From the NCBI GenBank assembly GCA_021296415.1, contig JAGWAL010000013.1:12158-74116 (forward strand): DNA of 61,959 nt, written 5' to 3'. The stretch comes from Acidimicrobiia bacterium. Lineage in GTDB: Bacteria; Actinomycetota; Acidimicrobiia; Acidimicrobiales; CATQHL01. The first letter of the stretch is position 1. Every line of letters starts with the position of its first letter. This document shows positions 29,066 through 50,347 of this stretch, one piece after another. A model generated the notes under the pieces. That model saw nothing but the letters and a program-made list of their open reading frames with translations. It had not been told where the DNA came from and did no database searches. The position numbers were made by a program, and so were the translations under genes.

Positions 29066-29085
29066 GGCGCACCTCCTGTCTGTCT

Positions 29086-31664: not shown

Positions 31665-31667
31665 GCC

Positions 31668-32039
31668 GTGCGGGTCGTGGTCGGCGGTGACAGGAGTTCA
31701 ACCTACGGGGGCCTCTTCACCGGCCGCGTGGAGCTGGAGATGCTGCACGCCACCGCCGGCGACGACGAGCCCGACACCGCCCACGTGCACTTCAGCGACG
31801 GGGCGGTCACCAACTGGCACAGCCACCCCGGGGGCCAGCTGATCTACGTGGCGGCCGGGCGCGGCCGGGTCGGCACCGACGCCGACGGCGCCGTGCCGCT
31901 GGAGCCGGGCACGCTGGTGGTGGCTCCGCCGAACGAGCGCCACTGGCACGGCGCGGCTCCTGGCTGCGACTGCACGCTCCTGTGCGTCACGTGGGGCACG
32001 ACCTGCTGGACCGACGAGGCACCCGGCCTCGGCGACTGA
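31668..32039 (+). CDS. cupin-domain protein
   Basis: ORF 31668..32039 with cupin motifs NWHSHPGGQLIYVAAG and PPNERHWHGA. Confidence 0.75.
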   Translation: MRVVVGGDRSSTYGGLFTGRVELEMLHATAGDDEPDTAHVHFSDGAVTNWHSHPGGQLIYVAAGRGRVGTDADGAVPLEPGTLVVAPPNERHWHGAAPGCDCTLLCVTWGTTCWTDEAPGLGD

Positions 32040-32172
32040 CGCCGCAGACCGGAACCTGGTCTCGCGGTGGTCCGGGCAGCGCCGCCGGCGGCCTAGCAAT
32101 GGCCGCCTACAGCGCCCCCGACACCCCCGCCCTCGCGATCCTGTGGTTGCGGTGGAGGAAGGCCACGAACAC

Positions 32173-33582: not shown

Positions 33583-33599
33583 GGACCGGTCGCGGCGGC

Positions 33600-34868: not shown

Positions 34869-35560
34869 CGGCCTGCCACGTCGTCGAGGAACCAATCCAC
34901 TAGCCGCTGCGTGCGACGGGACGCCGAGGCCTCCAGGCCGGCGGTCTCGGCCGCCATCACACCAGGGTCGACGCCGTGGGCCCGGAGTTCCTCGTCCCCG
35001 ATCACGAGCCATTCCGCCAGCAGCTCGCTGTCCACCTCGGGGTGGAACTGCAATCCCAGGCTCCGGCCCTCGCGAAAGGCCTGCGGGCCGTTGCGATTGC
35101 GGGCGATCTCGGTGGCACCCTCGGGGACCGTGAAGCGGTCGTAGTGCCACTGGAACCACGGTCCGGGTGAGAGGCCGTCAGGCTCGTCGGTGTCGATTGT
35201 GAGCCAGCCGAACTCGGGGACCGGCGCCCGTGACACCGTGCCGCCCAGGGCTGCGGACAACACCTGGCCACCGAAGCAGAGGCCGAGGACGGGCCGCCCG
35301 GAGTCGTGGGCACGCCGGACGAAGTCGAGTTCACGGTGGATCCAGCTTCCGATCCTGGCCTCGTCGTACACCGACCACACCGCTCCCAGCACCACCACCA
35401 GGTCGTAGTCGCCGGGATCGGGGAACGCACGGTCGCTGACGGGGTTCTGCACGTCGCCGACCACCCGGAAGGGCTCCAGTTCGACGCCCCGGCCGGCGAG
35501 AGCCTCGCCGACGAGCGCCGCGTGCCCAGTCGGGTCGTGCTCGACCGCCAACCCCTTCAC
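34865..35560 (-). CDS. class I glutamine amidotransferase-fold protein (gamma-glutamyl hydrolase candidate)
   Basis: ORF 34865..35743, likely GTG 35560. Nucleophile elbow PVLGLCFGGQ and the His-Glu motif LQFHPE are present. Confidence 0.8.
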   Translation of the reverse strand: MKGLAVEHDPTGHAALVGEALAGRGVELEPFRVVGDVQNPVSDRAFPDPGDYDLVVVLGAVWSVYDEARIGSWIHRELDFVRRAHDSGRPVLGLCFGGQVLSAALGGTVSRAPVPEFGWLTIDTDEPDGLSPGPWFQWHYDRFTVPEGATEIARNRNGPQAFREGRSLGLQFHPEVDSELLAEWLVIGDEELRAHGVDPGVMAAETAGLEASASRRTQRLVDWFLDDVAGR

Positions 35561-35591
35561 CGCCGCAGCATACCGGCGGCCATCCGACGGC

Positions 35592-35749
35592 CCGGTCGGG
35601 AGCCGGGTGCCGTTCGCTCCTTCGGCGCAGGCGCAAGGCGTCGCAAAGCGGCTCTTTAGACCGGTCGGGAGCCGGGTGCCGCAGTGTCCGGTCGGGGGCC
35701 GGGGTGCCGTTCGCTCCTTCGGCGCGGGCGCAAGGCGTCGCAAAGCGGC
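35592..35749. repeat. two copies of a roughly 61-bp unit plus a 20-bp partial copy, in the spacer between priA and the amidotransferase-P450 operon
   Basis: Full copies at 35592-35652 and 35688-35749: ccggtcggg(a/g)gccgg(g)gtgccgttcgctccttcggcgc(a/g)ggcgcaaggcgtcgcaaagcggc. Partial copy ccggtcgggagccgggtgcc at 35661-35680. Confidence 0.85.
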
Positions 35750-35824: not shown

Positions 35825-37743
35825 TCAGAACCTCAGCGGGTCGATGGCCAGGCGGAGGCGGCCGGGGGGGCGCTCGACGTTGGCGAGGGCGTCGAGGAGG
35901 AACCTGCGGTCGGCGGCGCGGACGACCCAGCGGTTCTCTCCCACCGGGGAGATGTCGAGGCCGAGCGGCCGACCCAGGCGCTCCACGAAGGCGTCGGCGG
36001 CCGCTCCGGCGATCTCGGCGAGCGTCTCGAACGGGGGGAAGCCGAGCTGTTGGCGCAGAGCCCGGTCGTGGCTGCTCAGCAGGCCCGGGTCGGCGGTGCC
36101 GGCGGCCTGCAGGACCGGGTGGCCGGGCTGGCGGGTCTGCACCAGGATCCGGCCTCCGCCGCTGCGGGGCCCGGCGAGGCGGGCGGCGCGGACCAGGAGC
36201 GCCATGGCCTGCTCGTTGGCCCGGTAGCGAGGCGCCGAGAGTTCCTGATCGAAGTCCAGGAACGCCACCAGGTCGGCCTTGGGGACTCGGTGCAGCGCGG
36301 CTTCGGTTCCGATCACCACGCGGGAGTCGCCGCCCCCGGTCTCCGGGCCTGAACGGGCGGATCCGCTCACCTCGGCAACCCGCTCGCCGAGCAGCACCTC
36401 CAGCTCCTCGCGGAGCCTGGCCACGCCGGGACGCAGGATGCGCAGGCGCGTGGCTCCGCAGCCCGAGCAGACCCGCGGACGATGCTCGCCGCAGCGCGGG
36501 CAATCCAGACCGCCGGTGCTTGCGCCCGCGGCGGTTCCCTCTCCCACCGCGGCTCCGCAGGAGTCGCAGACCACCAGGTCGCCGCATCCCGCGCAAGCCA
36601 GAAGGCGCGCCCGCCCCTTGCGGTTTAGGACGCAGACGGCCCTGTCGCGGGACCGGAGGCGGGCCACGAGCGTCTCGGTCAGCAGGCCGTGGCGGCCCAC
36701 CTCGGGGTCGCGCTGGTCCACGACCTCCAGGCTCGGCCATCCCTCCCGCTCGACGGCGCGCCGCGGTGCCAGAGGCCCGTCGGACGCCAGTTCCTGGGCC
36801 TCCAGGGTGGGAATCGGCGAGACCAGCACACACGGGACGCCCGCTCGGCGGGCCCGCTCGACGGCCACCTCGCGGGCGCTCCAGGTCGGTGCGTCCTCGG
36901 CGACCAGTGCCTGAGCACCACGACCGCGGCGAGCCGGGGAGCAGGGCCGAAGACCCCGGCACGGGTCCCGACCACCACGCCACCGGCAGCGGCCTGCGCC
37001 CAGCCGTCGGGCAGCAGAGCCGCGGCGGCACCGCGACGGCGCACCCAATCGGCCAGGCGCCCCGCGTCGGCGACGTGCGGGACGACCAGCAGAACATCGC
37101 CCCGCGTCAGGGCCGCCATCAGCAACGGACCCCTGTCGCCGGCGGGAGGAACGCGCACCACCGACACGGACCTCTCGAACGCGCTCTCCCAGATCGCTTC
37201 GGAGCCTGTACCGGCCGGGCGGGCTGCCGGCGGTGCCGACGGCGCGTCGTGCCGAGGGACGCACTCGACGACTCGCGGCGGCGAGGCGGTACCGAAGAAC
37301 GTGGCGCGGCGCCCGGCCCAGCGCCATGCCGCCCAACAAGCCAGGTCGAGTGTCTCCGCCGACGGCCCGACGCCGACCAGCTTCGAGAGCGGTCGCAAGT
37401 CCAGGGGAGCCGGCTCGCGCCCGTCGCCCTCGTCGGGCGGCGGGTCACCCCCGAGATCGAGTTCCAAACGGAGATCTGCGGGCTGCTCGAGAGCGGCCTC
37501 GAGGATCGCGTCGGGCTGCGAACCCGGAGCCAGGGAGGGTTCGATGTTCCTTGCCGGGGCGGGTCGCCCGGCGGGCTCGGGGTCGCAGGCCGTCACCCAG
37601 GCGCCAACGCGGCGGCCCTGCAACGCCACACGCACCATCGTCCCGACGGCCAGCCTCGCCGCTCGACCGTCATCGTGCCAGGCGGAGGGCACCTCGTAGT
37701 CGAACTCGCGGTCGACGGCCGCCACGTCGGTGCGCACCCGCAC
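35825..37743 (-). pseudogene. priA: primosomal protein N' (PriA) with an interrupted reading frame (apparent 1-nt frameshift near 36913)
   Basis: The N-terminal part is ORF 36679..37743 (VRVRTDVAAVDREFDYEVP...LAAVVVL). The C-terminal part is ORF 35825..37339 (...ALVAEDAPTWSAREVAVE..., the Cys-rich CAGCG..CDSCG..CPRCG..CSGCG, ...QTRQPGHP...). Total span is 1919 nt, not divisible by 3. Confidence 0.7.
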
Positions 37744-37811: not shown

Positions 37812-38984
37812 TCAGAGGCCGAGTTCCGATCGCAGCTCGTGGACCCGGTCCGTGCGCTCCCAGGTGAACTCGTCGCGCTCGCGGCCGAAGTGGCCGTAGG
37901 CGGCGGTCGAGGTGTAGATGGCCCGCAGCAGGTCCAGGTCACGGATAATGACCGCCGGGCGCAGATCGAACACCTCGCGGACGGCAGGGGCGATCGCGGC
38001 CGGATCCACGTGGTGGGTGCCGAACGTCTCCACCATCACCGAGACCGGCTCGGCAATGGCGATGGAGTAGGCGATCTGGATCTCGCAGCGGTCCGCCGCA
38101 CCGGCGGCGACAAGGTTCTTGGCCGCCCAGCGCGCCGCGTAGGAGGCCGAGCGGTCGACCTTGGTGGGGTCCTTGCCGCTGAAGGCCCCGCCGCCGTGGC
38201 GGGCCATGCCACCGTATGTGTCCACGATGATCTTCCGCCCGGTGAGCCCGGCGTCGGCCACGGGCCCGCCCATCACGAAACTCCCCGTGGGGTTGACGAG
38301 GATCCGCGGGTCGGCCTCGGGGAACAGGGGACGCAGCACCGGATTGATGACGTGCTCGACGATGTCGGGCTCGATGGTGCGCCGGAGGTCGGTCCCGGCA
38401 GCGTGCTGAGCGGAGACCAGCACCGTCTCCACACCAACGGGCACGTCGCCCTCGTAGCGCACGCTCACCTGGGTCTTGCCGTCAGGACGGAGATACGGCA
38501 CAGCGCCGGCCCGGCGTACCTCCGAGAGGCGCTCGGCCATGCGGTGCGCCAGATGGATCGGCATCGGCATGAGGGTCTCGGTGTCCCGGCAGGCGTAGCC
38601 GAATACCAAGCCTTGATCGCCGGCCCCCATCACGTCAGGATCCTCGGCGGGCGCGTTGTCGACGCCGAGAGCCACCTCGGGCGCCTGCTCGCCGATGGCC
38701 AACACGACCCCGCAGACGTTGCCGTCGAAGCCGATATCGCCCCGGTCGTAGCCGATGCCGCAGATGGTGTCGCGCACGATCCCCGGAATGTCCACCCAGG
38801 CATCGGTGCGGATCTCGCCGCTCACGAGACACAACCCGGTGGTCAGGAACGTCTCGCAGGCCACCCGGCTCTCGGGGTCCTTGGCGATCAGCGCATCGAG
38901 GACGGCGTCGGAGACCTGATCGGCCATCTTGTCGGGATGGCCCTCGGTGACGGACTCCGAAGTGAAGGTGTAAGTGGGGCTCAC
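37812..38984 (-). CDS. metK: S-adenosylmethionine synthase
   Basis: ORF 37812..38984 (GTG start), ...[25 protein letters not shown]...GAGDQG... Confidence 0.95.
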
Positions 38985-39067
38985 AGTGCCTCGATCATCG
39001 TTCCCGGCGGCTGTGGGTCTGCCGCCCTCCGTCCTGTCGTGTCGTCACCCGCCCCCCGTCGGCGGCG

Positions 39068-39073
39068 ATTATA
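39068..39073 (-). promoter_or_regulatory. candidate -10 box TATAAT about 84 nt upstream of metK
   Basis: The minus strand reads gagccggTATAATcgcc. No convincing -35. A small hairpin (CCCCGtcgCGGGG) lies just after the upstream gene's stop. Confidence 0.3.
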
Positions 39074-39148
39074 CCGGCTCGCCACCGGCGGCCTCCCGGG
39101 GCGGGACCTGACCGCCACCCCCGCCCTCGCCCCGCGACGGGGCGGGTC

Positions 39149-40273
39149 TCAGGCGTTCTGCTGCGGCGGGTGGTCGCCGGTGAGACCCTGCTCGCGCCAG
39201 AGGGCGAGTTTCTCGAGGACAGGGAAGTCGTTGAAGCTGAAGAGGCAGGCATCGTCGGACGTCGAGGCGTTGGCGTGCTCGTGCCATGTCCACGAGGGCA
39301 CGCAGAAGATGTCCATCTCGACCCAGTCGAAGCGGTGCCCGCCGATGACCGAGTGGCCCGATCCCCTGGCAACCTGGTAGACGACGTTGCCGGTGTGCCG
39401 GTGGGCCCGCGTCGCCTCGCCGGGACGGAGCAGTTGCATGGCCGCACCCATCGTGGCCATGACGTGGCCGCCGGTGTGAGGGTTCACATAGCGCAGCATC
39501 ACGCCGTCGTGGGGACTCTCGACACCGGCCGAGGCGGCCCGCTGCAACGACTCGTAAGTGGCGTCGAAGGGATAGCGCAGCAGCGGCGAGTAGGGCCGGT
39601 CCCAGGAGTAGCCGGTCGGCAGCAACGCGGGACCGCCGAACGCGCCTTCGGAGTCGTTGGGTGGATGGTCGACGCTCTGGTGGTGGTCGGGATGCACCTC
39701 GTACCAGTTGGCTTCGAGGGCGTTGGCGAGCGGGATGTCCAGGCCGTCCTGCCAGAGGCAGGTCTCACCCTCCTCGTCCACGCCGTGGTCGTGCCAGGTG
39801 CCACCGGGCGTGAGCACGAAGTCTCCGGGGTGGAGGTCGACGCGGTGGCCGTCCACGACCGTGTAACCGCCCGAGCCCTCCATGATGAAGCGCAGGGCCG
39901 AGGCGCCGTGGCGGTGCGCCGAGGCACGCTCGCCGGGCCGCATGACCTGGATGCCACTGAAGAGCAGTCCGCACACGGCGCTGATCTCTCTGCGCCTCGG
40001 GTTGCGCAGGTAGACGACCCTGCGACCCGCGTCCTCGGGCGCCACGAGGTCGAGTGAGCGCAGCGCCTGGATGCGCAGCTCGGACCACCGCCACAGAGTC
40101 GGCGCCGAGAACGCATGCGGCTCCCAGGGCTCGATCTCGTTCGCGACGGTCCACAGAGCGCCGGTGTCGAGGCGGTCCAGCTCGCCGTAGTACTGCTGCA
40201 GATCTTCGCTGTCGGCAACCCGGGCGCGACCCAACTCCCGGTCGCGCGCCTCGCCGGCGGTTCGGATGCTCAT
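39149..40273 (-). CDS. gentisate 1,2-dioxygenase-like bicupin dioxygenase
   Basis: ORF 39149..40273, ...IQVMRPGERASAHRHGASALRFIMEGSGGYTVVDGHRV...GDFVLTPGGTWHDHG..., plus a second cupin with HRHTGNVVYQV. Confidence 0.8.
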   Translation of the reverse strand: MSIRTAGEARDRELGRARVADSEDLQQYYGELDRLDTGALWTVANEIEPWEPHAFSAPTLWRWSELRIQALRSLDLVAPEDAGRRVVYLRNPRRREISAVCGLLFSGIQVMRPGERASAHRHGASALRFIMEGSGGYTVVDGHRVDLHPGDFVLTPGGTWHDHGVDEEGETCLWQDGLDIPLANALEANWYEVHPDHHQSVDHPPNDSEGAFGGPALLPTGYSWDRPYSPLLRYPFDATYESLQRAASAGVESPHDGVMLRYVNPHTGGHVMATMGAAMQLLRPGEATRAHRHTGNVVYQVARGSGHSVIGGHRFDWVEMDIFCVPSWTWHEHANASTSDDACLFSFNDFPVLEKLALWREQGLTGDHPPQQNA

Positions 40274-41298
40274 GGTCGGACCTCCTGGCTGTCGTGACCG
40301 GCAAGGGTGTCGAGGAGCTCGATGGGACCGTCGAAGGGCTCATCCGGACCCCGCGGCGTGCGATCGACCGCGAGAGAGAACACGTCGAAGCGGTTGTAGT
40401 GGCCGGTGATGTTGTGCATCTGGTTGTGCTGGACGCACCGCGCCAGGTCGATCTCTCCGTAGGCGATGCCCTCTTCGTCGATGAGCGGCTCGCCGACGAC
40501 GGCCCCGTCGGGACCGCAGATCCCACTCCACGCCGAGTTGCGCCGGCGCAGGAGTTCCTGCGCCTCCGGCCCGGCCAGAGCCATGGCCGCGATGATCTCG
40601 TCGCCGATGGTCGAGCACGCAGCGACGGTGAAGACCTTCCCTTCGAACGAGTGCGCCGCGGTTCGGGTCCATATGGCAGCGGCCATGTCGTAATCCTCGG
40701 GCGCCGTCGGCAGAGCGATGTAGCCCGCCACGTGCACGAGTTCGCCCTGCTCGAGGAGGGCGAACCGTGCCAGCGGATTCGAGTTCTCGCCGCATGCCAG
40801 CACGCCGAGCGGTCCCAGCGGTGTGTCGTGGACGACGAGGCTCGAACCGTCGCCGCCGGTCCAGGTGAGCTTCTCGGCCCAGGTCGGCACGAGTTTGCGG
40901 TGCCGCCCGAGGAGGCGACCCCGATCGTCGATCGTCAGCGTGGTGTTGTAGATCGTGCCGACCCCCCGGCACGATCGTTCGTTGACGCCGATCACGACGT
41001 GGACGCCGTGGCGGCGCGCGGCAGCGGCGACGGCTGCGACCTCGGGGCCGGGAACGGTCACGGCGGTGTCGTGGAGGCGCCGGAACCACTCGCTGCCTGC
41101 GAGCGGCGTCATGATCCAGTTCCAGTACGGGTAGCCGGCGATGAAGACCTCCGGGAACGCCACGAGCGAGGCGCCGCCCCGGGCGGCTTCGGCCACCAGC
41201 GAGGCGGCACGTTCGGCGGTGGCCTGCGGTTCGAGGAACGCGGGCGCCATCTGGACTGCTGCCGCCAGATAGGGAGGCGGGTAGGAGGCGCTGCTCAT
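40270..41298 (-). CDS. nitrilase-branch carbon-nitrogen hydrolase
   Basis: ORF 40270..41298. The Glu-Lys-Cys triad context is AFPEVFIAGYPYW, HRKLVPTWAEK and LACGENSNPL. 4-nt overlaps with both neighbours. Confidence 0.82.
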   Translation of the reverse strand: MSSASYPPPYLAAAVQMAPAFLEPQATAERAASLVAEAARGGASLVAFPEVFIAGYPYWNWIMTPLAGSEWFRRLHDTAVTVPGPEVAAVAAAARRHGVHVVIGVNERSCRGVGTIYNTTLTIDDRGRLLGRHRKLVPTWAEKLTWTGGDGSSLVVHDTPLGPLGVLACGENSNPLARFALLEQGELVHVAGYIALPTAPEDYDMAAAIWTRTAAHSFEGKVFTVAACSTIGDEIIAAMALAGPEAQELLRRRNSAWSGICGPDGAVVGEPLIDEEGIAYGEIDLARCVQHNQMHNITGHYNRFDVFSLAVDRTPRGPDEPFDGPIELLDTLAGHDSQEVRP

Positions 41299-42563
41299 CG
41301 GTCGGCCACGAACGTGATCGGGAGGTGCTTGATCCCGTTGATGTGGTTGCTGCGCAGCCGATCCGGTGGGCCCGCCAACTCCAGCCGTCGCACCCGACGG
41401 GCGAGTTCCTCCAGCACCGCGGCGATCTGCAGGCGGGCGAGATGCGAGCCGAGGCAGAAGTGCGGGCCGCCCCGACCGAAGGCGATGTGATTGTTGGGCG
41501 AGCGATCGATGACGAAGTGCTGCGGCTCGTCGAAGTGCTTCTCGTCGCGGTTCGCCGAGGCGTAGTACATGACCACCCGCTCACTCGCCCGGATCGTCAC
41601 CGAACCCAACCTCGTGTCCTCCGTGGCGACGCGGCGGACGAAGTGGACCGCAGTGGCCCAGCGCAGCACCTCGTCGGCGGCGACGTACGAGTCGATCCCT
41701 CCGGCACGGAGGCGGCGCCACTCGCCGGGATGTGTCGCCAGGGCCGCCAACCCGTGACTGATCGAGTGCCGGGTTGTCTCGTTGCCCGCCACCACGAGCA
41801 TCAGGAAGTAGTTGCAGAACTCCCGGTCGGTGAGCTCCCGGCCGCCGGCCCGACCGGTCGCGAGCGCGCTGACGACGTCTGCGCCCGGCCGGTGCCGGCG
41901 CTCGACCGCCAGCTCCCGCCCCAGGTCGAACGCCTCGAGGGAGGCCGGATGGCCGAACGGCAGGAGACGGCGCAACTCGGCGGGCACGGCCTCGACGGCA
42001 GGGTCCCGGAACTCGGGGTCGTCGGACCCGATGACGGCATCGCTCCAGCGGATCATGTCGTCGCGCCGGTCCGGCGGGATGCCCATGATCTGGCAGAGCG
42101 TGAGGATGGGGAGGCGCTCGGAGATGACCGAGACGGCGTCACAGGTGCCGCGCCCGAGTGCCTCGTCGATGAGTCCGGCCGCCGTGGAGCGAACCGACTC
42201 CCGCAACTTCCGGACCGCCTTCGGCGTGAACAGCCGCGCCGTGATCCGGCGCATGTCGGTGTGCTGCGGAGGATCCATCTCGAGCAGGGTCCGCCGCACG
42301 TCGCACTGCTCGTCGTCGAGGTCGTCGAGGCTGATGACGCCTTTGCGGGAACTGAAGCGCCCCGTGTCGCGCGAGACGACCACGATGTCGTCATACGCCG
42401 TCACCGCCCAGAACCCCTCGTGCCCGCCGCCGCGATCGTTCCACGCGACGGGGCTCGATCTCCGGAGGCGGGCGAACTCCTCGTGCGGCACGCCGCTCCT
42501 CCACAGTTCCGGGTCGGAGAGATCCACGGCGGCCCGCGGGCGTGTGGGAGCCTTTGCCGTCAC
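41295..42563 (-). CDS. cytochrome P450 (copy 4)
   Basis: ORF 41295..42563 (GTG start) with VAGNETT, DEVLR, FGRGGPHFCLG and RSNHINGIKHLPI. Confidence 0.92.
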   Translation of the reverse strand: MTAKAPTRPRAAVDLSDPELWRSGVPHEEFARLRRSSPVAWNDRGGGHEGFWAVTAYDDIVVVSRDTGRFSSRKGVISLDDLDDEQCDVRRTLLEMDPPQHTDMRRITARLFTPKAVRKLRESVRSTAAGLIDEALGRGTCDAVSVISERLPILTLCQIMGIPPDRRDDMIRWSDAVIGSDDPEFRDPAVEAVPAELRRLLPFGHPASLEAFDLGRELAVERRHRPGADVVSALATGRAGGRELTDREFCNYFLMLVVAGNETTRHSISHGLAALATHPGEWRRLRAGGIDSYVAADEVLRWATAVHFVRRVATEDTRLGSVTIRASERVVMYYASANRDEKHFDEPQHFVIDRSPNNHIAFGRGGPHFCLGSHLARLQIAAVLEELARRVRRLELAGPPDRLRSNHINGIKHLPITFVADR

Positions 42564-42830
42564 GTCGACTCACCCACGACACAATGTATAGCGTATTAGT
42601 CGTGATCGCTGTAATAGCAATATGCTATGAACATCACCCGAAACCTGGAGGTTGCCGGCGTCGTCCCAGCCGGACTCCCGTCCAGAGCCATCTGATCCGC
42701 TCTTGGCTAGGCACTATACGTCCTCTCCACCTCGACATACAACACGACGGCAGCGGTGATCAGAGTGATAGCTTGGCCCGCCCAGCGCTCAGAGCCTTAC
42801 GTAATCCTTGCGATAGCGAATTATCAATCC

Positions 42831-42836
42831 TAGAAT
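42831..42836 (+). promoter_or_regulatory. candidate -10 box TAGAAT, 6 nt before the GTG of the PaaX-like gene (a leaderless transcript is plausible)
   Basis: Read directly: cctagaatgagagtGTGgcg. No SD is possible in the 6-nt gap. Confidence 0.35.
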
Positions 42837-42842
42837 GAGAGT

Positions 42843-43673
42843 GTGGCGAACCCTCGGGAGACGATTCTGGACCTCTACGGATCGTTCATCAGAGACTTCG
42901 GGGGCTGGATCGCGGTGGCCGATCTGATTCGCCTCCTCGACACGCTCGGCATCGACGAGGCGTCGTCCCGCTCGGCGGTCTCCCGCATGAAACGGGCCGA
43001 ACTCCTGCAGCCGGCCATCCTGGGGGGCGTCAAGGGCTACAGACTCACCACGCCGGCCGAGGAGTGGTTCGCCGACGGCGACCAGCGCATCCTGCATCGG
43101 AGCGGTCCGGTCGAGCACACCCGCTGGGTGCTCGTCTCGTTCTCGGTGCCGGAGGGCGAGAGGATGATGCGATACCGGCTGCGGGCCCGCCTCAGCGCTC
43201 TCGGATTCGGGCAGGCCTCCGCGGGACTCATGGTCGCTCCCGTCGCCGTGATGGCGGAGACCGAACGGACGCTGCGGCGTGAGGGGCTCGACTCGTACGT
43301 CACGCTCTGGGACGCGACCCACGCGGGTTTCACCAGCACCGCGGCCATGGTGGCGTCCGCCTGGGACCTCCCGGCGATCCGAGCCGCCTACGACACCTAC
43401 ATGGCATCGCAGAGGCCGGTGCCGGCGGCGCTGGAGTCCGTGGTCGATGACGACCGGGAGGCGTTCCGTCACTACGTCGCCAACGTCAACGCCTGGCGTG
43501 CCCTCCCCTACCTCGACCCTGGACTCCCACTCTCGGCGCTGCCGGCCGGCTGGCCGAGTTCCGAGGCCGCGCAGCTCTTCGACGCCGTCGCGGCCCGGTT
43601 GCGCCCCGGCGCCTGGCGCTGGTTCGTCAGGATCTGCTCCCGGAATCACGAGGTGAGGGCGAAGGCAGGATGA
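42843..43673 (+). CDS. PaaX-family transcriptional regulator
   Basis: ORF 42843..43673, ...LDLYGSFIRDFGGWIAVADLIRLLDTLGIDEASSRSAVSRMKRAELL..., with a PaaX-like C-terminal domain. Confidence 0.78.
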   Translation: MANPRETILDLYGSFIRDFGGWIAVADLIRLLDTLGIDEASSRSAVSRMKRAELLQPAILGGVKGYRLTTPAEEWFADGDQRILHRSGPVEHTRWVLVSFSVPEGERMMRYRLRARLSALGFGQASAGLMVAPVAVMAETERTLRREGLDSYVTLWDATHAGFTSTAAMVASAWDLPAIRAAYDTYMASQRPVPAALESVVDDDREAFRHYVANVNAWRALPYLDPGLPLSALPAGWPSSEAAQLFDAVAARLRPGAWRWFVRICSRNHEVRAKAG

Positions 43674-44464
43674 TCGATCATGACCGCCATCCGATCTCCT
43701 GGCGCGATGCCGGCGAGGGTCCGCCCGTGATATTCCTGCACGGACTCGGCGGCACCCGCACGGCCTGGGATCCGCAGTTGCGCGGCCTGGCCGATCGGTT
43801 CCGCTGCATCGCCTGGGACATGCCGGGCTACGGGGCCTCGGCCCGCCTGGAGGAATTGACGTTCCCCGCCATCGCCGACAGCCTCGCCGGGCTGCTGGAC
43901 ACTCTGGAACTCGAGACCGCCGATCTCGTCGGGTTGTCGTTCGGCGGCATGCACGCGCTGCACGCGGCCGTCCACCATCCCGCCCGGGTGCGCCGGCTGG
44001 TGCTCGCCGACACGAGCCCCGCATTCGGACTCGACGGAACCACCGCACAGGAATGGAAGGAGGCCCGGCTCGCACCGATCGAGCGCGGCCTGGCCCCCTC
44101 CGACATGGCCGCGGGGGTCATCGAGTCGATCTGTGCGAAGCCTCTGGAGCCCGGGATTCGCGGTCAACTCGTTGCATCGTTCGCTCGGATCTCCGCGGCC
44201 GGCTTCCGGGCCTCCGTCGAGTGCCTGGTGCATCACGACGTTCGCGGCCAACTGGCCGGCATCGCCTGCCCGTCGCTGGTGATCGTTGGCGAGGCCGACC
44301 GGGAGACGCCCGTGGCGTACGCGGAAGCGCTGGCGGCCGGCCTTCCGAACAGCAGCCTCGAGGTGCTGGAAGGAGTCGGCCACCTGTCGCCGTCGGAAGC
44401 TCCGGAGCACTTCAACCGGCTCGTCGGAGACTTCCTCGGGCGGCCCGACGCGCCGAGCGATTGA
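43670..44464 (+). CDS. alpha/beta hydrolase
   Basis: ORF 43670..44464 with VIFLHGLGG, nucleophile elbow GLSFGG and a late GHLSPSE His. ATGA overlap with the regulator. Confidence 0.85.
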   Translation: MIDHDRHPISWRDAGEGPPVIFLHGLGGTRTAWDPQLRGLADRFRCIAWDMPGYGASARLEELTFPAIADSLAGLLDTLELETADLVGLSFGGMHALHAAVHHPARVRRLVLADTSPAFGLDGTTAQEWKEARLAPIERGLAPSDMAAGVIESICAKPLEPGIRGQLVASFARISAAGFRASVECLVHHDVRGQLAGIACPSLVIVGEADRETPVAYAEALAAGLPNSSLEVLEGVGHLSPSEAPEHFNRLVGDFLGRPDAPSD

Positions 44465-44479
44465 CAGCAGGAGGACTCG

Positions 44480-45658
44480 ATGAGCGACACGATCCGCACA
44501 CCCGCCCGGCTGGCGATCGTGGACCGGGTCAGCCGGCTCGGTCCGCTGTTCGCCAAGCGCACCGCCGAGTACGACCGTGAGGCGCGTTTCCCGTACGAGA
44601 ACTGGGGGGACCTCCGCGACGCCGGACTGCTGGGCATCGCCGTTCCCGTCGAAGCAGGCGGCCTGGGCGGCGACTTCGTGGCCTACGCCCTGGCGTCGGA
44701 GGAACTGGGGCGCCACTGCGCCGCCACGGCGCTCACCTTCAACATGCACGTGGCGACGACGTTGCTCGTCGGTGAGATCGCCGACGCACTCGACCTGACC
44801 GCAGCGGAACGGGGGCTGCTGGCCGAGCGCCGCGCCCGACTCTGGGACGGCATCGCCACCGAGCAGCACATCCACAGCCAGCCCTTCTCGGAGGGCCGCG
44901 CCGCCGGGGCCACCGGCGGCTACGCCACCCGCGCCACGCCGGTCGAGGGTGGCTACCGGGTCACCGGACGCAAGATCTTCGCATCGCTGGCCGGCGCCTC
45001 CAACTACCACAACATCCTGTGCCACACCGACGGCGACCCGCTGGTGCGGCTGCTGGGCGTTCCCCACGATGCCCATGGTCTGAGGATCGAAGGCGAGTGG
45101 GATCCGCTCGGCATGCGCGCAACCGACTCGCGCAACCTGGTCATGAACGACGTGTTCGTACCCGCGGAGAACGAGTGGCTACCGCCCGGAGCCTTCGACC
45201 AGGCCGCGACGCGCTGGCCGTACATCTTCATGACGCTCTCATTCACCTACCTGGGGCTGATGCGGGCAATACGCGACTTCACAGCCGAATATCTTCGGGA
45301 GAGTGGCCGAGCGACCAATCCCATCAAGCAACAAGGATGGGCGGAGATGAACCTCGTCTACGAGCAGGCGCAGGCGCTCTGTTACCGGATCCTCGGCGAC
45401 GTGTGCGTGGATCCCGAGCCGGCCAAGGTCCACCGGGCGTGGGCTTCGCTGGTCACGACGATGGAGGGGGCTCCGGCCATGGCCACCACCGCCATCCGCA
45501 TCTGCGGTGGACGGTCGATGCTGCGCCCGAGCCTCATCGAGCAGGCCTACCGGGATGCACGCTGCGGTGCCGCCATGCTGCCGTGGAGCGTGGAGGTGTG
45601 CCTGGAGCGGCTCGGTGCCGCGGGCCTCGCTGATCCGGCAGAGGGAGCCTCGCGATGA
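44480..45658 (+). CDS. acyl-CoA dehydrogenase-fold flavoprotein (paralogue of 14516..15718)
   Basis: ORF 44480..45658. Shares EYDREARFPYENW..., LTFNMHVAT and the C-terminal RDARCGAAMLPWSVEVCLERLG with the other copy. Confidence 0.75.
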   Translation: MSDTIRTPARLAIVDRVSRLGPLFAKRTAEYDREARFPYENWGDLRDAGLLGIAVPVEAGGLGGDFVAYALASEELGRHCAATALTFNMHVATTLLVGEIADALDLTAAERGLLAERRARLWDGIATEQHIHSQPFSEGRAAGATGGYATRATPVEGGYRVTGRKIFASLAGASNYHNILCHTDGDPLVRLLGVPHDAHGLRIEGEWDPLGMRATDSRNLVMNDVFVPAENEWLPPGAFDQAATRWPYIFMTLSFTYLGLMRAIRDFTAEYLRESGRATNPIKQQGWAEMNLVYEQAQALCYRILGDVCVDPEPAKVHRAWASLVTTMEGAPAMATTAIRICGGRSMLRPSLIEQAYRDARCGAAMLPWSVEVCLERLGAAGLADPAEGASR

Positions 45659-46701
45659 ACACCACCGCCACCGAATGGCGCTGGGTGCAGCGCTATGCCG
45701 AACAGTTCCGGGCGTGCGACCTGCAGGCCGGCGAGGTGGCCGTGCTGCTGTCGGAGGCCGCCAGCAGGCCGCTGATCGTCGAGACGGCCCGCATGGCGCT
45801 GGAGTCGCTGGGCGCGGCCGTGGCCGACGTGCGCATGCCGACGCCGACCAATCCCGGCCCTGTCCCCATCCGCTCGACCGGGGCCTCGGTGGCCCTGGCC
45901 GGGCACCGGGCGGCCATCGCCGCTCTGGCGGCCGCCGACTTCGTCGTGGACTGCACCGCCGAGGGACTGCTGCACGCCCCCGAGTTGGGCGAGATCCTGG
46001 CGGGGGGCAGCCGCGTGCTGATGATCTCCGCCGAGCACCCCGAGAATGCCGAACGCTGGCCCCACGACCCGACGCTGGCCGAGCGCGTGGAACACGGTGT
46101 GGCGCTGCTGACCGCCGCCGAGGTGATGGGTATCACCAGCGCCGCCGGCACCGACCTGCGAGTCCACCTCCCCGGCGCGGTCCGGGCCGGCTCCCACGGC
46201 TGGTGCACCGCACCCGGCAGCATCGCCCACTGGCCCGGCGGACTGGTCCTGGCGTTCCCGGCCGAGCGAACCGTCAACGGCACGCTCGTGCTGGCGCCCG
46301 GTGACGTCAACCTCACCTTCAAGGAGTACATTCGCGAGCCCATCAGCCTGCGGATCATCGACGACTACATCGTCTCCATCGACGGCGACGGCCACGATGC
46401 GGCACTGATGGAGTCCTACCTGGCGTCCTTCGAGGAAGTCGACGCCTACGCGGTCAGCCACGTGGGCTGGGGGATGAACCCGGGCGCCCGCTGGGAGGCC
46501 CTGGCCATGTGGGACAAGGGCGACCTCAACGGCACCGAACTGCGGGCCTTCGCCGGCAACGTGGTCTACTCCACCGGCGCCAACGAGACCGCCGGCCGCT
46601 TCTGCCGCGGCCACTTCGACCTGCCCATGCGCAACTGCACCGTCACCCTCGACGGCGAAACGGTCGTCGACGAGGGGAGACTACGCGCCGACCTTCGCTA
46701 G
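45655..46701 (+). CDS. NicX-like (2,5-dihydroxypyridine 5,6-dioxygenase / M29 aminopeptidase-fold) protein
   Basis: ORF 45655..46701. ...HWPGGLVLAFP...GTLVLAPGD...SHVGWGMNPGARW...STGAN...CRGHFDLPMRNC... matches my recollection of P. putida NicX, including the His/Ser/His-x-Asp iron-ligand contexts. Confidence 0.65.
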   Translation: MNTTATEWRWVQRYAEQFRACDLQAGEVAVLLSEAASRPLIVETARMALESLGAAVADVRMPTPTNPGPVPIRSTGASVALAGHRAAIAALAAADFVVDCTAEGLLHAPELGEILAGGSRVLMISAEHPENAERWPHDPTLAERVEHGVALLTAAEVMGITSAAGTDLRVHLPGAVRAGSHGWCTAPGSIAHWPGGLVLAFPAERTVNGTLVLAPGDVNLTFKEYIREPISLRIIDDYIVSIDGDGHDAALMESYLASFEEVDAYAVSHVGWGMNPGARWEALAMWDKGDLNGTELRAFAGNVVYSTGANETAGRFCRGHFDLPMRNCTVTLDGETVVDEGRLRADLR

Positions 46702-46829
46702 TCGAGCCGGCCAACTCGTGCCGGTGGAGACGGTCGAGGAGATTCGCGCCGGCATTATGGACCGCCGGCACGCCGCCACCGCCGCCCGGGATCGAGCACG
46801 CTGACGGCGGGAATCGGGGGACGGACCGG

Positions 46830-48899
46830 CTACGGGGATGTCAGGAGTTGGTCGGTCCCGACGTAGACGAACTCCCACGGTTCGGGATCGGGCCCCTGGT
46901 TCTCGACCCCGGCGGGGTAGCTGGGTATGAAGCCGTGCATCTTGGCCTGGAGGAAATTGTCGGCGGCCAACCAGGCGTACGCGTCGGAATACTTGAATTG
47001 ATTGATCCCGTGCCGGGTGGTTGCCAGATCGACTGCATAGCCGGTCTGATGACGCGAATAGCCCGGCGGCGCGATGACTCGGAATGCTCTGAAGATCTTC
47101 TCGTCCGTGTACGGCGCCTCCAGGCGGTGGAACAGCAGCTGTCTCTGTAGACCGAACCCGCGGTACCCGGAATTCAGCACGATCGAGTGGCCGGCTTGTC
47201 GGGCGGCCTCGCGGAGAGCCCGGTAGGCGCGTGCCGCCTCGGGTTGCAGCAGCTCCTGCTCCACGACCTCCAAGTCGTCCAGGGAGGCAACCACCGGTTG
47301 CAGCCTGTATCCCCGTTCCTCGGCGATTCTCCGCATACGAGCATCGATCTGCTCGTCGGCGGTGATGGTGGGAGCGTCGGATATGCGCACCAGGTTTGAC
47401 AGCATCACCGAATCGAGCAGGTCCTTGAACTGTTGACTCGAGAAATGCGGCATTTCCGCTGCTGCTTGCGCGGTGGATCTCGAGGTGCTCTCCCGATGAT
47501 CGATGTCAAAGGGCGACGTTCCCCTGTGTCGTTCACAGTCGCCCTCGATGAGATCGTGGAGTCGGTCGACCCGCCAGCCCCCTTCGGCGGGCCGCGGCGC
47601 TCCGTTCTCGTCGAGCAGGTGCGGGTGGAAATCCCAGCCGGCGATCCGGTCGCCGACGAAGTCGAGTTGCAGCACGCCCGTCTCGCCCGTGATGCCCCAT
47701 CTCGGGTGCCAGACGAAGTTGCCCAGCGAAAAGGCAACCAACTTGCCGTCCACGAACTCGATCGACTGCAGGACGTGCGGATGGTGACCGATGACGGCGT
47801 CGGCGCCGGCGTCGAGCAGGATCCGGGCGTACTCCCGCTGATCAGCGCTGGGACAGGTGGCCACCTCGATGCCCCAGTGAACGACGGCTATCACCACGTC
47901 CGCCTCACCGGCGGCGATCCTCACACTCTCGAGCACGCGCTCGGGTTCGGCATCCGAGGCGATGCCCGGTGAGCCGGGCCCGGCGGGGAAACTCCACGGA
48001 ACGATCCTGGACACACCCACGAACGCCACCGTCACGGACTCATCGATCACCAGGAGGCGGTGCCGGAAGGCCTCGACGTCGTTGACCCCCGCCCCGAGGG
48101 CCACCACGCCGGCGTCCTCCAACGACGCGATCGTGTCGACCAGGGCGTCCGCGCCGTAGTCCTTGGCGTGGTTGTTGGCCAGATTGGCGACGTCGATGCC
48201 GGCGTCGGCAATCCGCTGCGCCGCCGACGGGGGGGCACGGAAGGTGAACTGCTTGTCGGTCGGCGTATCGCGATCCGTGATCGCCATCTCCACGTTCACG
48301 ACGGCGACGTCCCCCGAAGCCAGGGGCGGTTCGATGCCCTCGAACGGATCGATCCCGGCCGGCTCGGTGCGATCCATGAGCACATCCCCCGCCGACAGCA
48401 GCGTCCAGCGCGTCCCCGTCGTGGTTGCCGTCGTTTCGGCCGGTGTCACCGGCGAGCTGTTCAGCCAGCGTCCCGGCGTGGCGTCGCCGGCGACGAACCG
48501 TCTCGTGGGCAGTCGGCGCGTTCCCCACGTGCCATCGTCCCGCCGCTGTTGCAGCGCGAACTCCACGCTCCCCCCGTCGAGCCGCCGCGCGGAGGCGCGC
48601 ATCTGCATCCCGGCAATCGGCAGCGGCGAGCTGTTCAGCCAGCGTCCCGGCGTGGCGTCGCCGGCGACGAACCGTCTCGTCGGCAGCTGGCGCACTCTCC
48701 ACGTGCCATCGTCCCGCCGCTGTTGCAGCGCGAACTCCACGCTCCCCCCGTCGAGCCGCCGCGCGGAGATGCGCACCTGCAAGCTCTCGTCCTGATCCGC
48801 GGACGCCGCTGCGGCGGTGGCGAGAACGCCGGTTGCGACCATCGCGACCGCGAACACGGACAGCAGGAGCCGCTGTCCGATGTCAAGAGTCCGAGACAT
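46830..48899 (-). CDS. secreted multidomain protein: signal peptide, two tandem repeat modules of about 58 aa, CapA/PGA_cap metallophosphatase-like domain, C-terminal VanY/M15B D-Ala-D-Ala carboxypeptidase-like domain
   Basis: ORF 46830..48899. CapA-like region: VANLANNHAKDYG, VVHWGIE, GHHPHVLQ, SLGNFV. VanY-like region: SGYRGF..., PGYSRHQTGYAVDL, EPWEFVYVG. Confidence 0.75.
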   Translation of the reverse strand: MSRTLDIGQRLLLSVFAVAMVATGVLATAAAASADQDESLQVRISARRLDGGSVEFALQQRRDDGTWRVRQLPTRRFVAGDATPGRWLNSSPLPIAGMQMRASARRLDGGSVEFALQQRRDDGTWGTRRLPTRRFVAGDATPGRWLNSSPVTPAETTATTTGTRWTLLSAGDVLMDRTEPAGIDPFEGIEPPLASGDVAVVNVEMAITDRDTPTDKQFTFRAPPSAAQRIADAGIDVANLANNHAKDYGADALVDTIASLEDAGVVALGAGVNDVEAFRHRLLVIDESVTVAFVGVSRIVPWSFPAGPGSPGIASDAEPERVLESVRIAAGEADVVIAVVHWGIEVATCPSADQREYARILLDAGADAVIGHHPHVLQSIEFVDGKLVAFSLGNFVWHPRWGITGETGVLQLDFVGDRIAGWDFHPHLLDENGAPRPAEGGWRVDRLHDLIEGDCERHRGTSPFDIDHRESTSRSTAQAAAEMPHFSSQQFKDLLDSVMLSNLVRISDAPTITADEQIDARMRRIAEERGYRLQPVVASLDDLEVVEQELLQPEAARAYRALREAARQAGHSIVLNSGYRGFGLQRQLLFHRLEAPYTDEKIFRAFRVIAPPGYSRHQTGYAVDLATTRHGINQFKYSDAYAWLAADNFLQAKMHGFIPSYPAGVENQGPDPEPWEFVYVGTDQLLTSP
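48451..48770. repeat. in-frame tandem duplication inside the CapA-VanY gene (period 174 bp)
   Basis: 48451-48596 versus 48625-48770 differ at about 6 positions over about 146 nt by hand alignment. They encode ARRLDGGSVEFALQQRRDDGTW..R.LPTRRFVAGDATPGRWLNSSP twice. Confidence 0.9.
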
Positions 48900-49050
48900 T
48901 GTCGGGTCCAGGGGTTGGACGGTCGGGGTTTGCCGGTACCGGATGCTCGCCGATTCCTGTACGGGGCCGATGGGCCTCCGGCTGCGGAGCCCGGGCGCGG
49001 GGACGCCCGAGGCCGGCGCACGGGGCGATATCAGATGTCATCGGTGTCGT

Positions 49051-49075
49051 GGATCCCGGCCTTCGCCGCAACGAC
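49051..49075. repeat. REP-like element, degenerate copy
   Basis: ggatcccggccttcgccgcaacgac, between the CapA-VanY start and the coaBC stop. Confidence 0.55.
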
Positions 49076-49100
49076 CCCCCGAGGGGCCGCCGATGGGCTC

Positions 49101-50309: not shown

Positions 50310-50347
50310 GCGGCGCTCACAGTCGGCACACCGCGAATCCGGCGGCC

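Follow-up and report, generated by a model that had tools for sequence, protein, structure and literature searches.

A nitrilase-like hydrolase within a conserved aromatic ring-cleavage module, and its coupling to a cytochrome P450 in Acidimicrobiales

The stretch of DNA analysed here (the window; 61,959 nucleotides of contig JAGWAL010000013.1, assembly GCA_021296415.1, from an Acidimicrobiia bacterium) carries on its minus strand three translationally coupled genes for a cytochrome P450, a nitrilase-like C-N hydrolase (NIT) and a gentisate 1,2-dioxygenase-type bicupin (GDO). NIT and GDO belong, together with an FAH-family acylpyruvate hydrolase (FAH) and a maleate isomerase, to a module that is widespread and present in public annotation, in which, as far as our searches show, the role of the NIT member is undescribed; the three-gene coupling to the P450 is a lineage-specific variant of it. 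We favour, with a probability of about 45%, the reading that P450, NIT and GDO make up the first part of an operon that degrades nitrogen-containing aromatics, and that NIT hydrolyses an amide of the maleamate type.

What nitrilase homologues do in the physiology of bacteria is for the most part unknown, and NIT is unusually conserved and stands in a fixed metabolic context. If NIT is indeed an amidase for a ring-cleavage product, a large family now mis-named 'nitrilase' in databases would gain a function, the coenzyme A (CoA)-dependent anthranilate/isatin pathway would gain its lower part, and the presumed substrate of a crystallised 'gentisate dioxygenase' would have to be revised. Should the module turn out to be plain gentisate catabolism to which an accessory hydrolase is attached, the outcome is a modest refinement of annotation. 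The Acidimicrobiales variant is of interest as a modular swap, in a lineage that is not in culture, of CoA-dependent hydroxylation for a P450 and a NicX-type route.

A conserved four-gene module

Relatives of NIT were collected by a scan of one genome per species, which found them in at least 565 species genomes, and partner genes were counted in the best 80 NIT-anchored loci of these relatives, which span Burkholderiales, Xenorhabdus, Providencia, Vibrio, Flavobacterium, Streptomyces, Sphingomonadales and others. GDO accompanies NIT in 74 of the 80 loci, an FAH-family gene in 72 and a racemase-family gene (maleate isomerase) in 66. NIT, GDO, FAH and maleate isomerase are one conserved module in Proteobacteria, Bacteroidota and Actinomycetota. 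That the NIT-GDO pair is not special to the window but part of this module had been overlooked in the original prediction made from the sequence, as had a NicX-like operon next door. The racemase-family partner scores 314 bits to the 4FQ7 chains, named 'Maleate cis-trans isomerase', which we take to be the enzyme of the nicotine pathway of P. putida S16, and 217 bits to 2XEC, a putative maleate isomerase. By these matches it is a genuine maleate cis-trans isomerase orthologue, and maleate would therefore be an intermediate of the module. The proteobacterial gene order, GDO-FAH-NIT-isomerase, matches the order of the reactions that we propose below. Distant NIT homologues with 45-53% identity (Polaromonas, Salinigranum) lie in unrelated gene contexts. 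In two metagenome contigs a gene of the tannase/feruloyl-esterase family (PF07519) stands between NIT and the maleate isomerase (L149, 10302-11834; L150, 10098-11732; L numbers are our labels for related loci).

Since the 80 loci had been picked through NIT, a second anchor, on GDO, was used in metagenome contigs. NIT lies beside GDO in 18 of the 40 GDO loci with enough upstream sequence. FAH is present in 11/11 loci with NIT and in 2/12 without it, and the isomerase in 7/11 and 0/12, respectively (Fisher p = 0.0013, the loci being phylogenetically related). Strong as it is statistically, we did not take the co-occurrence of NIT and isomerase as independent evidence of biochemical coupling, since NIT-less GDOs mostly lack FAH too and the loci are related. 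Solitary GDO genes of the same clade also occur in unrelated contexts, and the contexts of NIT-less GDOs are heterogeneous and uninformative.

The operon in Acidimicrobiales

At 72% G+C the window abounds in spurious open reading frames (ORFs), and real genes were picked by third-position GC (GC3). The operon begins with the CYP125-like P450 (41295..42563, minus strand; 422 residues, GTG start; Pfam p450; GC3 0.90), continues with NIT (40270..41298, minus strand; 342 residues; Pfam CN_hydrolase, 143 bits; GC3 0.86), a member of a distinct 'CGEN' subfamily and the proposed maleamate-type amide hydrolase, and ends with GDO (39149..40273, minus strand; 374 residues; two Cupin_2 stretches; GC3 0.89). 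The alternative frames that overlap these ORFs lack the coding pattern in GC3. Both the P450/NIT junction (41295-41298) and the NIT/GDO junction (40270-40273) read ATGA, a 4-nt overlap of stop and start. The original prediction had placed three minus-strand genes with these overlaps at exactly the same coordinates and had named the products a P450, a branch-1-type nitrilase (with the motif contexts FPE, HRKLVPT and CGEN) and a GDO-like bicupin; comparisons with Pfam, NCBIfam and the PDB uphold the families, and all three proteins score under the curated equivalog cut-offs of NCBIfam. The P450 is the promoter-proximal gene, because a conserved block with a -10-like TATA(C/T)AT lies directly upstream of its start.

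The closest relatives of the locus are metagenome-assembled genomes of Acidimicrobiales. L085 (LXNJ01000006.1) is the window's own contig and was left out of the recurrence counts. The order P450-NIT-GDO recurs in at least nine independent Acidimicrobiales loci (L001-L004, L144-L148), whose NIT proteins are 69-89% identical to that of the window, and the linkage is thus no chance juxtaposition, a danger of which the original prediction had been aware. The 4-nt overlap of NIT and GDO is kept in L001, L004, L005 and L006, and that of P450 and NIT in L002. L005 and L006 have NIT-GDO and the divergent operon and lack the P450. In L004, L146 and L147 the operon extends with FAH and an Asp/Glu-racemase-family gene, in L002 with an FAH-family gene, and L006 has FAH and the racemase-family gene but no P450. 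In the window, L001, L144 and L145 the operon stops after GDO and adjoins metK. The full sister operon in Acidimicrobiales is P450-NIT-GDO-FAH-isomerase; the window's lineage lost FAH and isomerase from the locus and has only FAH paralogues elsewhere. In L146 (12073-13719) a 548-residue gene call joins a maleate-isomerase (Amdase) domain to all three PaaX domains, which is either a real fusion or a mis-call.

Together with a divergent four-gene operon, P450, NIT and GDO form an island inside the housekeeping array gmk-rpoZ-coaBC-island-metK-priA (window 37812-51264). L144 and L145 have the same insertion into this array, and the G+C content of the island is slightly lower, 0.67-0.70 vs 0.72-0.75.

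That no operon of a P450, a nitrilase and a ring-cleaving cupin had been described, as the original prediction supposed, agrees with a full-text literature search, which found no published description of one; nor did the search turn up any paper that places a nitrilase-family gene in a gentisate, anthranilate or maleamate cluster. The partner set of the NIT module is likewise not described in the nitrilase survey of Podar et al. 2005 (PMC1199592). The Nit1C cluster of that survey and the aldoxime-nitrile pathway share with the present loci a conserved cluster around a branch-1-type nitrilase homologue. They differ from them in their partners, as none of those of Nit1C (radical SAM, acetyltransferase, AIR synthase) occurs here, and there is no aldoxime dehydratase among the neighbouring proteins.

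The nitrilase-like hydrolase

The best curated model for NIT is that of the Nit6803 nitrilase, TIGR04048 (212 bits against a cut-off of 502.6), and NF040852 gives 51.8 bits against 500, so that neither is passed. Its best PDB matches are nitrilases (212-183 bits) and cyanide dihydratases, and amidase-type CN-hydrolases reach at most 52 bits. The nearest solved nitrilases are about 40% identical, namely 6ZBY 'NitA', the 22RY/22SF/22RX chains, presumably the nitrilase of A. facilis 72W, and 8UXU. All 121 family members compared share Glu49 (FPE), Lys135 (HRKL), Glu142 and Cys169, which align with the corresponding residues of three solved nitrilases. Around these residues the family goes its own way: 49 positions that are at least 95% conserved in the 121 members differ from all three solved nitrilases, and many of them flank the catalytic residues. 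The family has A-C-G-E-N where the solved nitrilases have C-[W/A]-E-H, the CWE motif becoming CGE by a change of W to G beside the catalytic Cys, and RKLVPTWAEK where they have RKLKPTHVER (PTHVER to PTWAEK); over a longer stretch, RKLVPTWAEKLTW stands against RKLKPTHVER..Y. NIT thus belongs to a distinct, tightly conserved branch-1-related subfamily with a remodelled active-site neighbourhood. Identity across phyla is 61-70%, high for a nitrilase, which suggests a single fixed substrate, and database names such as 'aliphatic nitrilase' for its relatives appear to be automatic. The view that the CN-hydrolase falls outside the amidase/carbamoylase clade therefore stands in so far as the protein lies on the nitrilase branch; it is qualified by the distinctness of the remodelled subfamily and by the gene context, which suggests an amide rather than a nitrile as the substrate.

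One logic offered in the original prediction starts from the hydrolysis of an aromatic nitrile to an acid of the hydroxybenzoate type, followed by hydroxylation and gentisate-type cleavage; in such a scheme NIT would be a true nitrilase for an aromatic nitrile or an arylacetonitrile, the P450 would hydroxylate the acid and GDO would open the ring. The nearest characterised relatives of NIT are indeed genuine nitrilases, at about 40% identity, its catalytic residues are intact, and the Ruegeria pomeroyi locus adds a class-III aminotransferase and a StyD-like arylacetaldehyde dehydrogenase, enzymes which, like IorAB, all make aryl-acids, as a nitrilase would. Yet about 150 related loci contain neither an aldoxime dehydratase nor a nitrile hydratase nor any other gene linked to nitriles, and no gene context supports nitrile metabolism. 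A highly conserved enzyme found in so many species genomes is unlikely to target rare nitriles, the CWE of the compared nitrilases is replaced, and the P450 orthogroup belongs with γ-glutamyl-amine systems (see below). Whole cells of Flavobacterium indicum, moreover, showed no activity on any nitrile tested (PMC5405348); Flavobacterium species carry the module, and the membership of the F. indicum gene in the NIT family is unverified. We consider nitrile hydrolysis quite unlikely as the function of NIT.

The dioxygenase and the proposed pathway

Against TIGR02272 the window GDO scores 306.7 bits, under the cut-off of 442.1, as does the Providencia orthologue with 309 bits. Its match to PDB 3BU7, the crystallised GDOsp of Silicibacter (Ruegeria) pomeroyi, amounts to 578 bits at 64% identity. 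On the R. pomeroyi megaplasmid the gene directly downstream of the NIT homologue matches the 3BU7 chain with 901 bits over the full 374 residues; the crystallised GDOsp is the module's cupin adjoining NIT. The window GDO and GDOsp are orthologues with an identical 3-His site (His120, His122 and His161, residues 119, 121 and 160 of GDOsp), an identical second shell (Arg84, Gln109, Arg128, His163 and Asp176, residues 83, 108, 127, 162 and 175) and a common second-domain metal motif (HxH...HxH), the difference being that the window protein lies under the curated GDO equivalog cut-off.

We propose that GDO would cleave 5-hydroxyanthranilate, the 2-amino analogue of gentisate, between C1 and C2, giving the amide 'maleamoylpyruvate' in which C2 is left as a carboxamide. 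FAH would split this into pyruvate and maleamate, NIT would release ammonia from maleamate to leave maleate, or would already act on the preceding amide, and the maleate isomerase would form fumarate. In other phyla the substrate would come from the successive action of an isatin hydrolase, of an IorAB-like oxidoreductase or CoA ligase, of an SdgC-type 5-hydroxylase and of a thioesterase. A NicX-type module would also feed an N-acyl-maleamate-type product to the same NIT. The scheme uses each conserved gene exactly once, and an amide hydrolase in this place would explain both the constancy and the position of NIT. Every variable upstream module concerns aromatic amines or N-heterocycles: isatin hydrolase, IorAB, the 2-aminobenzoyl-CoA-type hydroxylase, the NicX-like and glutamine-synthetase-like (GS-like) genes and the amine-type P450. 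The fuller form of the proposal, which we advance with considerable doubt, is that the CGEN subfamily is a new kind of amidohydrolase for an ene-amide, maleamate or maleamoylpyruvate, which, with GDO acting on 5-hydroxyanthranilate, would make up a hitherto undescribed and very widespread ring-cleavage pathway for carbon and nitrogen from anthranilate and isatin. This pathway would be the missing lower half of the CoA-dependent aerobic anthranilate route, and the Acidimicrobiales would feed it through the P450 and the NicX-type module in place of CoA thioesters.

Upstream modules in other phyla

Among the same 80 loci, with domain evidence for the accessory genes taken from a Providencia locus, the commonest upstream partner is a bifunctional FAD-monooxygenase/Old-Yellow-Enzyme of the SdgC or 2-aminobenzoyl-CoA monooxygenase-reductase type (47 loci; NF006101, 1301 bits). 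A 4HBT thioesterase occurs in 34 loci, an IorA/IorB-like 2-oxoacid:ferredoxin oxidoreductase, the alternative to a ligase, in 30-34, and an AMP-ligase in 14 (Flavobacterium, Streptomyces), while a MarR regulator (PaaX in actinobacteria) and a flavin reductase are found in 26 each.

Nine loci (L012, L015, L044, L046, L071, L117, L121, L156 and L158; from Kerstersia, Glaciimonas, Burkholderia, Sphingomonas, Sagittula and metagenomes) have a PF04199 'cyclase' gene beside the module, and most of them have IorAB-like genes as well. Isatin hydrolases carry the signature HxG[T/A]HxDxPxH, a WxW hairpin and a Gln that distinguishes them from kynurenine formamidases (PMC6117287). All seven of the PF04199 sequences examined have the Mn-site motif HxG[T/A]HxDxPxH (near residue 70), WxW (near residue 60) and Asp / His(+14) / Gln(+26), with Gln and not Glu; NCBIfam gave no model naming a PF04199 cyclase-family protein. 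An isatin hydrolase would yield isatinate (2-aminophenylglyoxylate), from which an IorAB-type enzyme would give 2-aminobenzoyl-CoA, the known substrate of the bifunctional flavoenzyme type. The upstream partners elsewhere thus point to 2-aminobenzoyl substrates.

A CoA-dependent anthranilate pathway is known from Arthrobacter, in which PaaX-like regulators are involved, hydroxyanthraniloyl-CoA accumulates and the lower part is unknown (PMC3534580; GapMind preprint). The loci described here resemble this pathway, that of strain Rue61a (PMC3534580), in their PaaX-like regulators and in the bifunctional flavoenzyme type of many related loci, and the window differs in having no such flavoenzyme. 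Neither a CoA ligase, an SdgC-type hydroxylase, a thioesterase nor an IorAB homologue was found anywhere in the window, and in none of the loci does a P450 or NicX-type gene appear together with SdgC, IorAB or ligase genes. In Acidimicrobiales the upstream CoA-type genes are replaced by the CYP125-like P450 and the divergent NicX-like operon. The anthranilate route of Azoarcus continues by β-oxidation-like steps and not by GDO-type ring cleavage.

The nitrogen might also be removed before the ring is cleaved, with NIT acting on the enaminone 2-amino-5-oxocyclohex-1-ene-carboxyl-CoA, or on the quinone-imine tautomer of 5-hydroxyanthranilate, to give an intermediate at the level of gentisate. 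Such a scheme would reconcile a nitrogen-containing substrate with GDOsp as a gentisate enzyme; SdgC-type proteins retain the Old-Yellow-Enzyme reductase domain, and anthranilate-grown Arthrobacter contains a C7H8O4-CoA species consistent with a deaminated reduced product (PMC3534580). The core module, however, occurs without an SdgC-type gene in many loci, those of R. pomeroyi, Duganella and all Acidimicrobiales, the hydrolysis of an imine or enamine is no known reaction of the Cys-Glu-Lys nitrilase fold, and the pairing with the NicX module is left without a reason. Removal of nitrogen at this early stage therefore seems to us rather unlikely.

The cytochrome P450

The P450 is 41.5% identical to the CYP125 enzyme 5DQN over aligned residues, or 39% counting gap columns, which is borderline under the family rule of at least 40%, and 49% identical to a reconstructed CYP125 ancestor. 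The I-helix AGNETT, the ExxR motif (EVLR) and the haem loop FGRGGPHFCLG are present. It shares with the CYP125 steroid C26-monooxygenases, its best structural family match, the class-I bacterial P450 motifs, and differs from them by an insertion of about 12 residues in the F/G region, by the lack of sterol-catabolic genes nearby and by orthologues in amine-catabolic operons.

The nearest relatives beyond Acidimicrobiales (57-66% identity) come from Hydrogenophaga, Vibrio, Duganella, Novosphingobium, Sagittula and others. In an identity matrix the operon P450 is 63% identical to the proteobacterial P450s and 42-44% to its paralogues in the window, and the proteobacterial proteins are therefore its orthologues. 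In all five proteobacterial contexts inspected they lie in operons with GS-like and glutamine-amidotransferase-like (GATase-like) genes, followed in three of the five by a ferredoxin reductase and a [2Fe-2S] ferredoxin. A Duganella-type locus (L151, 10001-11989) encodes a 662-residue fusion of a class-I glutamine-amidotransferase-like domain and the orthologous P450, placed between the GS-like gene and the ferredoxin reductase and ferredoxin genes. In Sagittula (L152, 1072-11266) the GS-GATase-P450 operon stands beside a 2-aminobenzoyl-CoA monooxygenase/reductase-type gene and β-oxidation-type genes, a context that associates the P450 orthogroup with anthranilate-type catabolism.

A GS-like gene, a GATase-like gene and an oxygenase are the layout of γ-glutamylation-dependent amine oxidation, as in the P450-using Ipu system for isopropylamine and the aniline dioxygenases Atd/Tdn. 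The operons of the P450 orthologues, with their GS-like, GATase-like, ferredoxin reductase and ferredoxin genes, resemble these systems in their layout; the window differs in that its P450 is coupled to NIT and not to a GATase and that its operon has no redox partners, and it has GS-like and GATase-like genes outside the operon. The P450 would thus be an amine-pathway enzyme that a single lineage has co-opted as the first gene of its NIT-GDO operon, and not an oxime- or nitrile-forming one. Since its orthologues are always encoded with a GS-like ligase and an amidotransferase-like hydrolase, it most likely hydroxylates an amine substrate or the γ-glutamylated form of one. A search of the entire 62 kb window detected no ferredoxin, and no ferredoxin reductase is among the window genes scanned against Pfam, an annotation that is not exhaustive; the original prediction had correctly found neither with the operon, and both must be encoded elsewhere in the genome.

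These neighbourhoods bear on two further explanations of the coupling. The second logic of the original prediction, that the P450 forms an oxime or nitrile like the plant CYP79/CYP71 enzymes and NIT then hydrolyses the nitrile, draws solely on the adjacency and translational coupling of the two genes. It is contradicted by a P450 that is CYP125-like, not CYP79-type, and orthologous to the P450s of operons with GS-like, GATase-like, ferredoxin reductase and ferredoxin genes, by two sister lineages that retain NIT-GDO without the P450, and by the age of the NIT-GDO module, which is ancient and independent of any P450; we regard it as hardly credible.

NIT of Acidimicrobiales might, on the other hand, replace the GATase-like γ-glutamyl-amide hydrolase and free a hydroxylated amine from its γ-glutamyl carrier. 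GATase and P450 are adjacent or fused in all five proteobacterial contexts, P450 and NIT have the same relative arrangement in the Acidimicrobiales operon, where there is no GATase gene, and other members of the nitrilase superfamily (Nit1, Nit2) hydrolyse glutamyl-type amides. NIT is nevertheless 61-69% identical to proteobacterial, Bacteroidota and Streptomyces orthologues whose loci, by tblastn, have neither the P450 orthologue nor the NicX triad, and the annotated loci L081, L082, L149, L150, L156 and L158 have no GS-like gene. One conserved function of NIT is to be expected, because orthologues this similar occur without P450, NicX triad or GS-like partners. L005 and L006, in addition, retain NIT without the P450. 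A substitution for the GATase is accordingly very unlikely.

The divergent NicX-like operon

Across the divergent promoter/operator region (42564..42842, aligned with L144, L145 and L001) from the P450 lie four plus-strand genes. The first (43673 being its last position, 42843 its first) encodes a PaaX-like transcriptional regulator with all three PaaX Pfam domains (TIGR02277, 128 bits, under the cut-off). It overlaps by 4 nt an α/β-fold hydrolase gene (43670..44464; Abhydrolase_1/6), possibly for an N-acyl/N-formyl amide or ester hydrolase. An ACAD-fold flavin monooxygenase of the group D type (44480..45658; ACAD N/M/C domains) and a NicX-like enzyme of the 2,5-dihydroxypyridine 5,6-dioxygenase family (45655..46701; 348 residues) follow.

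Two blocks of the promoter region are kept in the window, L144, L145 and L001: ATCGCAAG at about 42807-42814, and GATC(G/A)C...ACGCTATA(C/T)AT at about 42584-42611, directly upstream of the P450 start. Both are candidate operators for the PaaX-like regulator, and they resemble what we take to be the core of the E. coli PaaX operator (TGATTCGC-like). Promoter-like hexamers lie at 42808-42849 on both strands. PaaX-like genes also stand beside the module in Streptomyces, Kitasatospora and L144-L148.

The NicX-like protein had no Pfam match in a first scan. It scores 183 bits (E 6.5e-53) to PDB 7CN3, which is NicX, and is 41% identical to the NicX of the canonical nic cluster of Azospirillum, with which its SHVGWG / GHFDLP positions, taken as metal ligands, align; PF26233 NicX is recorded on its orthologues. 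That the 348-residue protein might be an aldoxime dehydratase was considered and rejected in view of the 7CN3 match. For the ACAD-fold protein the best curated and PDB matches were to type-2 ACAD-domain proteins, nitrososynthases, DszC and HsaA. Replicons of Ensifer, Aminobacter, Shinella and Sinorhizobium carry NicX-like, ACAD-like and α/β-hydrolase genes as a triad too; in the one Ensifer record inspected, genes for a flavin reductase and a GS-like protein accompany the triad. Identity to the Ensifer cluster is 32% for the window's α/β-hydrolase and 38% for its ACAD-fold protein, whose Ensifer homologue is itself encoded with a flavin reductase. In L146 and L147, as in the Ensifer cluster, a GS-like gene lies next to the NicX operon, and the GS-like gene of Ensifer is 55-56% identical to the GS-like partners of the proteobacterial P450s.

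In the canonical nic cluster NicX is followed by NicD (an α/β-hydrolase), NicF (an isochorismatase-type maleamate amidase) and NicE (a maleate isomerase). No isochorismatase gene of the NicF type was found in the window island, and none was called in L144-L148; across the promoter from the NicX-like operon stand NIT and, in complete loci, the isomerase. The maleamate branch of nicotinate, nicotine and hydroxypyridine degradation is matched by the adjoining NicX-family dioxygenase and α/β-hydrolase, by the maleate isomerase of the sister operons in L004, L006, L146 and L147, and by a chemistry that leads to maleate and fumarate with release of ammonia. The differences are that the proposed amidase belongs to the nitrilase superfamily and not to the isochorismatase type of NicF, that the α/β-hydrolase has only 26% identity to an enzyme in the NicD position, that the hydroxylases are an ACAD-fold flavoprotein and a P450 instead of NicC or NicAB, and that a second, GDO-type ring-cleavage enzyme is present.

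Points against the proposed pathway

Several observations weigh against a maleamate-type substrate for NIT. GDO, FAH and isomerase already make a complete route from gentisate to fumarate and pyruvate without any C-N hydrolase, and the correlation of NIT with the isomerase may only mirror one shared operon. NIT is by sequence a relative of the branch-1 nitrilases, a fold that usually prefers nitriles; no assayed member of the CGEN subfamily was found in the literature, and to our knowledge the known maleamate amidases (NicF type) all belong to the isochorismatase family, a different fold. The window operon has no adjoining FAH and maleate isomerase genes, and no isomerase was found in the window. 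The substrate of the P450 is quite uncertain, because its CYP125 relatives oxidise terminal methyl groups of lipids. The GS-like genes of Acidimicrobiales are only 24-27% identical to the GS-like genes that partner the proteobacterial P450s, and the α/β-hydrolase is only 26% identical to the hydrolase in the canonical NicD position.

The same doubts extend to the dioxygenase. GDOsp is reportedly, as the title of its paper has it, a gentisate 1,2-dioxygenase, and all gentisate-binding residues are kept in the window GDO. In a neighbour-joining tree of 117 GDOs the members with and without NIT are interleaved, and there is therefore no sign of a shift in specificity; the idea of a separate NIT-linked clade, and hence of a new specificity, was rejected on this tree.

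These findings would fit a plain CoA-dependent catabolism of salicylate through gentisate (sdg-type), in which GDO would cleave gentisate, FAH would split the resulting maleylpyruvate into maleate and pyruvate, and the isomerase would form fumarate. NIT would then be a peripheral feeder or safeguard that turns, for instance, amides of the salicylamide or anthranilamide type, or stray nitriles, into the acid. The nine-ORF sdg cluster of Streptomyces sp. WA46 (Ishiyama et al. 2004) reportedly degrades salicylate via gentisate in a CoA-dependent manner, and we know of no role assigned to a nitrilase-family gene in that pathway. Streptomyces and Kitasatospora NIT loci carry a ligase, an SdgC-type hydroxylase, GDO, FAH and isomerase, and the Streptomyces-type loci, with NIT and PaaX in addition, resemble the WA46 cluster. 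Salicylate, which is free of nitrogen, induces sdgC in Massilia. The window shares with the sdg cluster the GDO-type ring cleavage and the PaaX-type regulation of actinobacteria, and departs from it in having a P450 and a NicX-type operon in place of CoA ligase, SdgC-type hydroxylase and thioesterase. The sdg-type scheme, however, leaves unexplained why NIT is the most constant partner of the module, often between FAH and isomerase, why isatin-hydrolase-type genes and 2-oxoacid oxidoreductases accompany it, and why it is paired in Acidimicrobiales with NicX-like and GS-like genes. We think it unlikely, and prefer the hydrolysis of a maleamate-type amide.

Other features of the window

Four CYP125-like P450 paralogues, mutually 41-48% identical, occur in the window: 15828-17096 (minus strand), 24627-25886 (plus), 33600-34868 (minus) and 41295-42563 (minus), the last being that of the operon. 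Each sits in a different catabolic cluster. A second aromatic/amine cluster (27779-35743) contains a GS-like gene (27779-29119, minus strand), a LigB-type extradiol dioxygenase (29848-30762), an FAH-family hydrolase (30759-31664), a small cupin (31668-32039), an FAD monooxygenase (32143-33582) and, directly upstream of the paralogue P450b, a GATase-like gene (34865-35743), a pairing as in Proteobacteria. A further cluster (13021-19028) comprises an aldehyde dehydrogenase, an ACAD-fold protein that has 58.5% identity with its counterpart in the island, the paralogue P450_d, an acetoacetate-decarboxylase-family protein and an FAH-family hydrolase.

The spacer from the GDO stop to metK (38985-39148) holds a GC-rich hairpin (39120..39146, minus strand; stem CCCGCCCCG...CGGGGCGAGGGCGGG) that begins 3 nt past the TGA of GDO and might, on weak evidence, mark the end of the operon, and a -10-like element, GGTATAAT, presumably of the metK promoter. 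The fold of 38985-39160 is insignificant (whole-region z-score -1.2) and no terminator with a T-tract was found there; an Rfam scan of the window found no riboswitch and no other RNA family.

Between coaBC and the NicX-like gene the window has a gene with PGA_cap and VanY domains (46830-48899), which is without counterpart in L144 and L145. The priA gene (35828-37731, minus strand) is split over two frames with a break near 36913. Compared with priA of L144, a single ORF of 653 residues, frame -1 (37731-36913) matches residues 5-282 and frame -3 (36913-35828) residues 287-653, so that either the gene is frameshifted or the assembly is wrong at this point.

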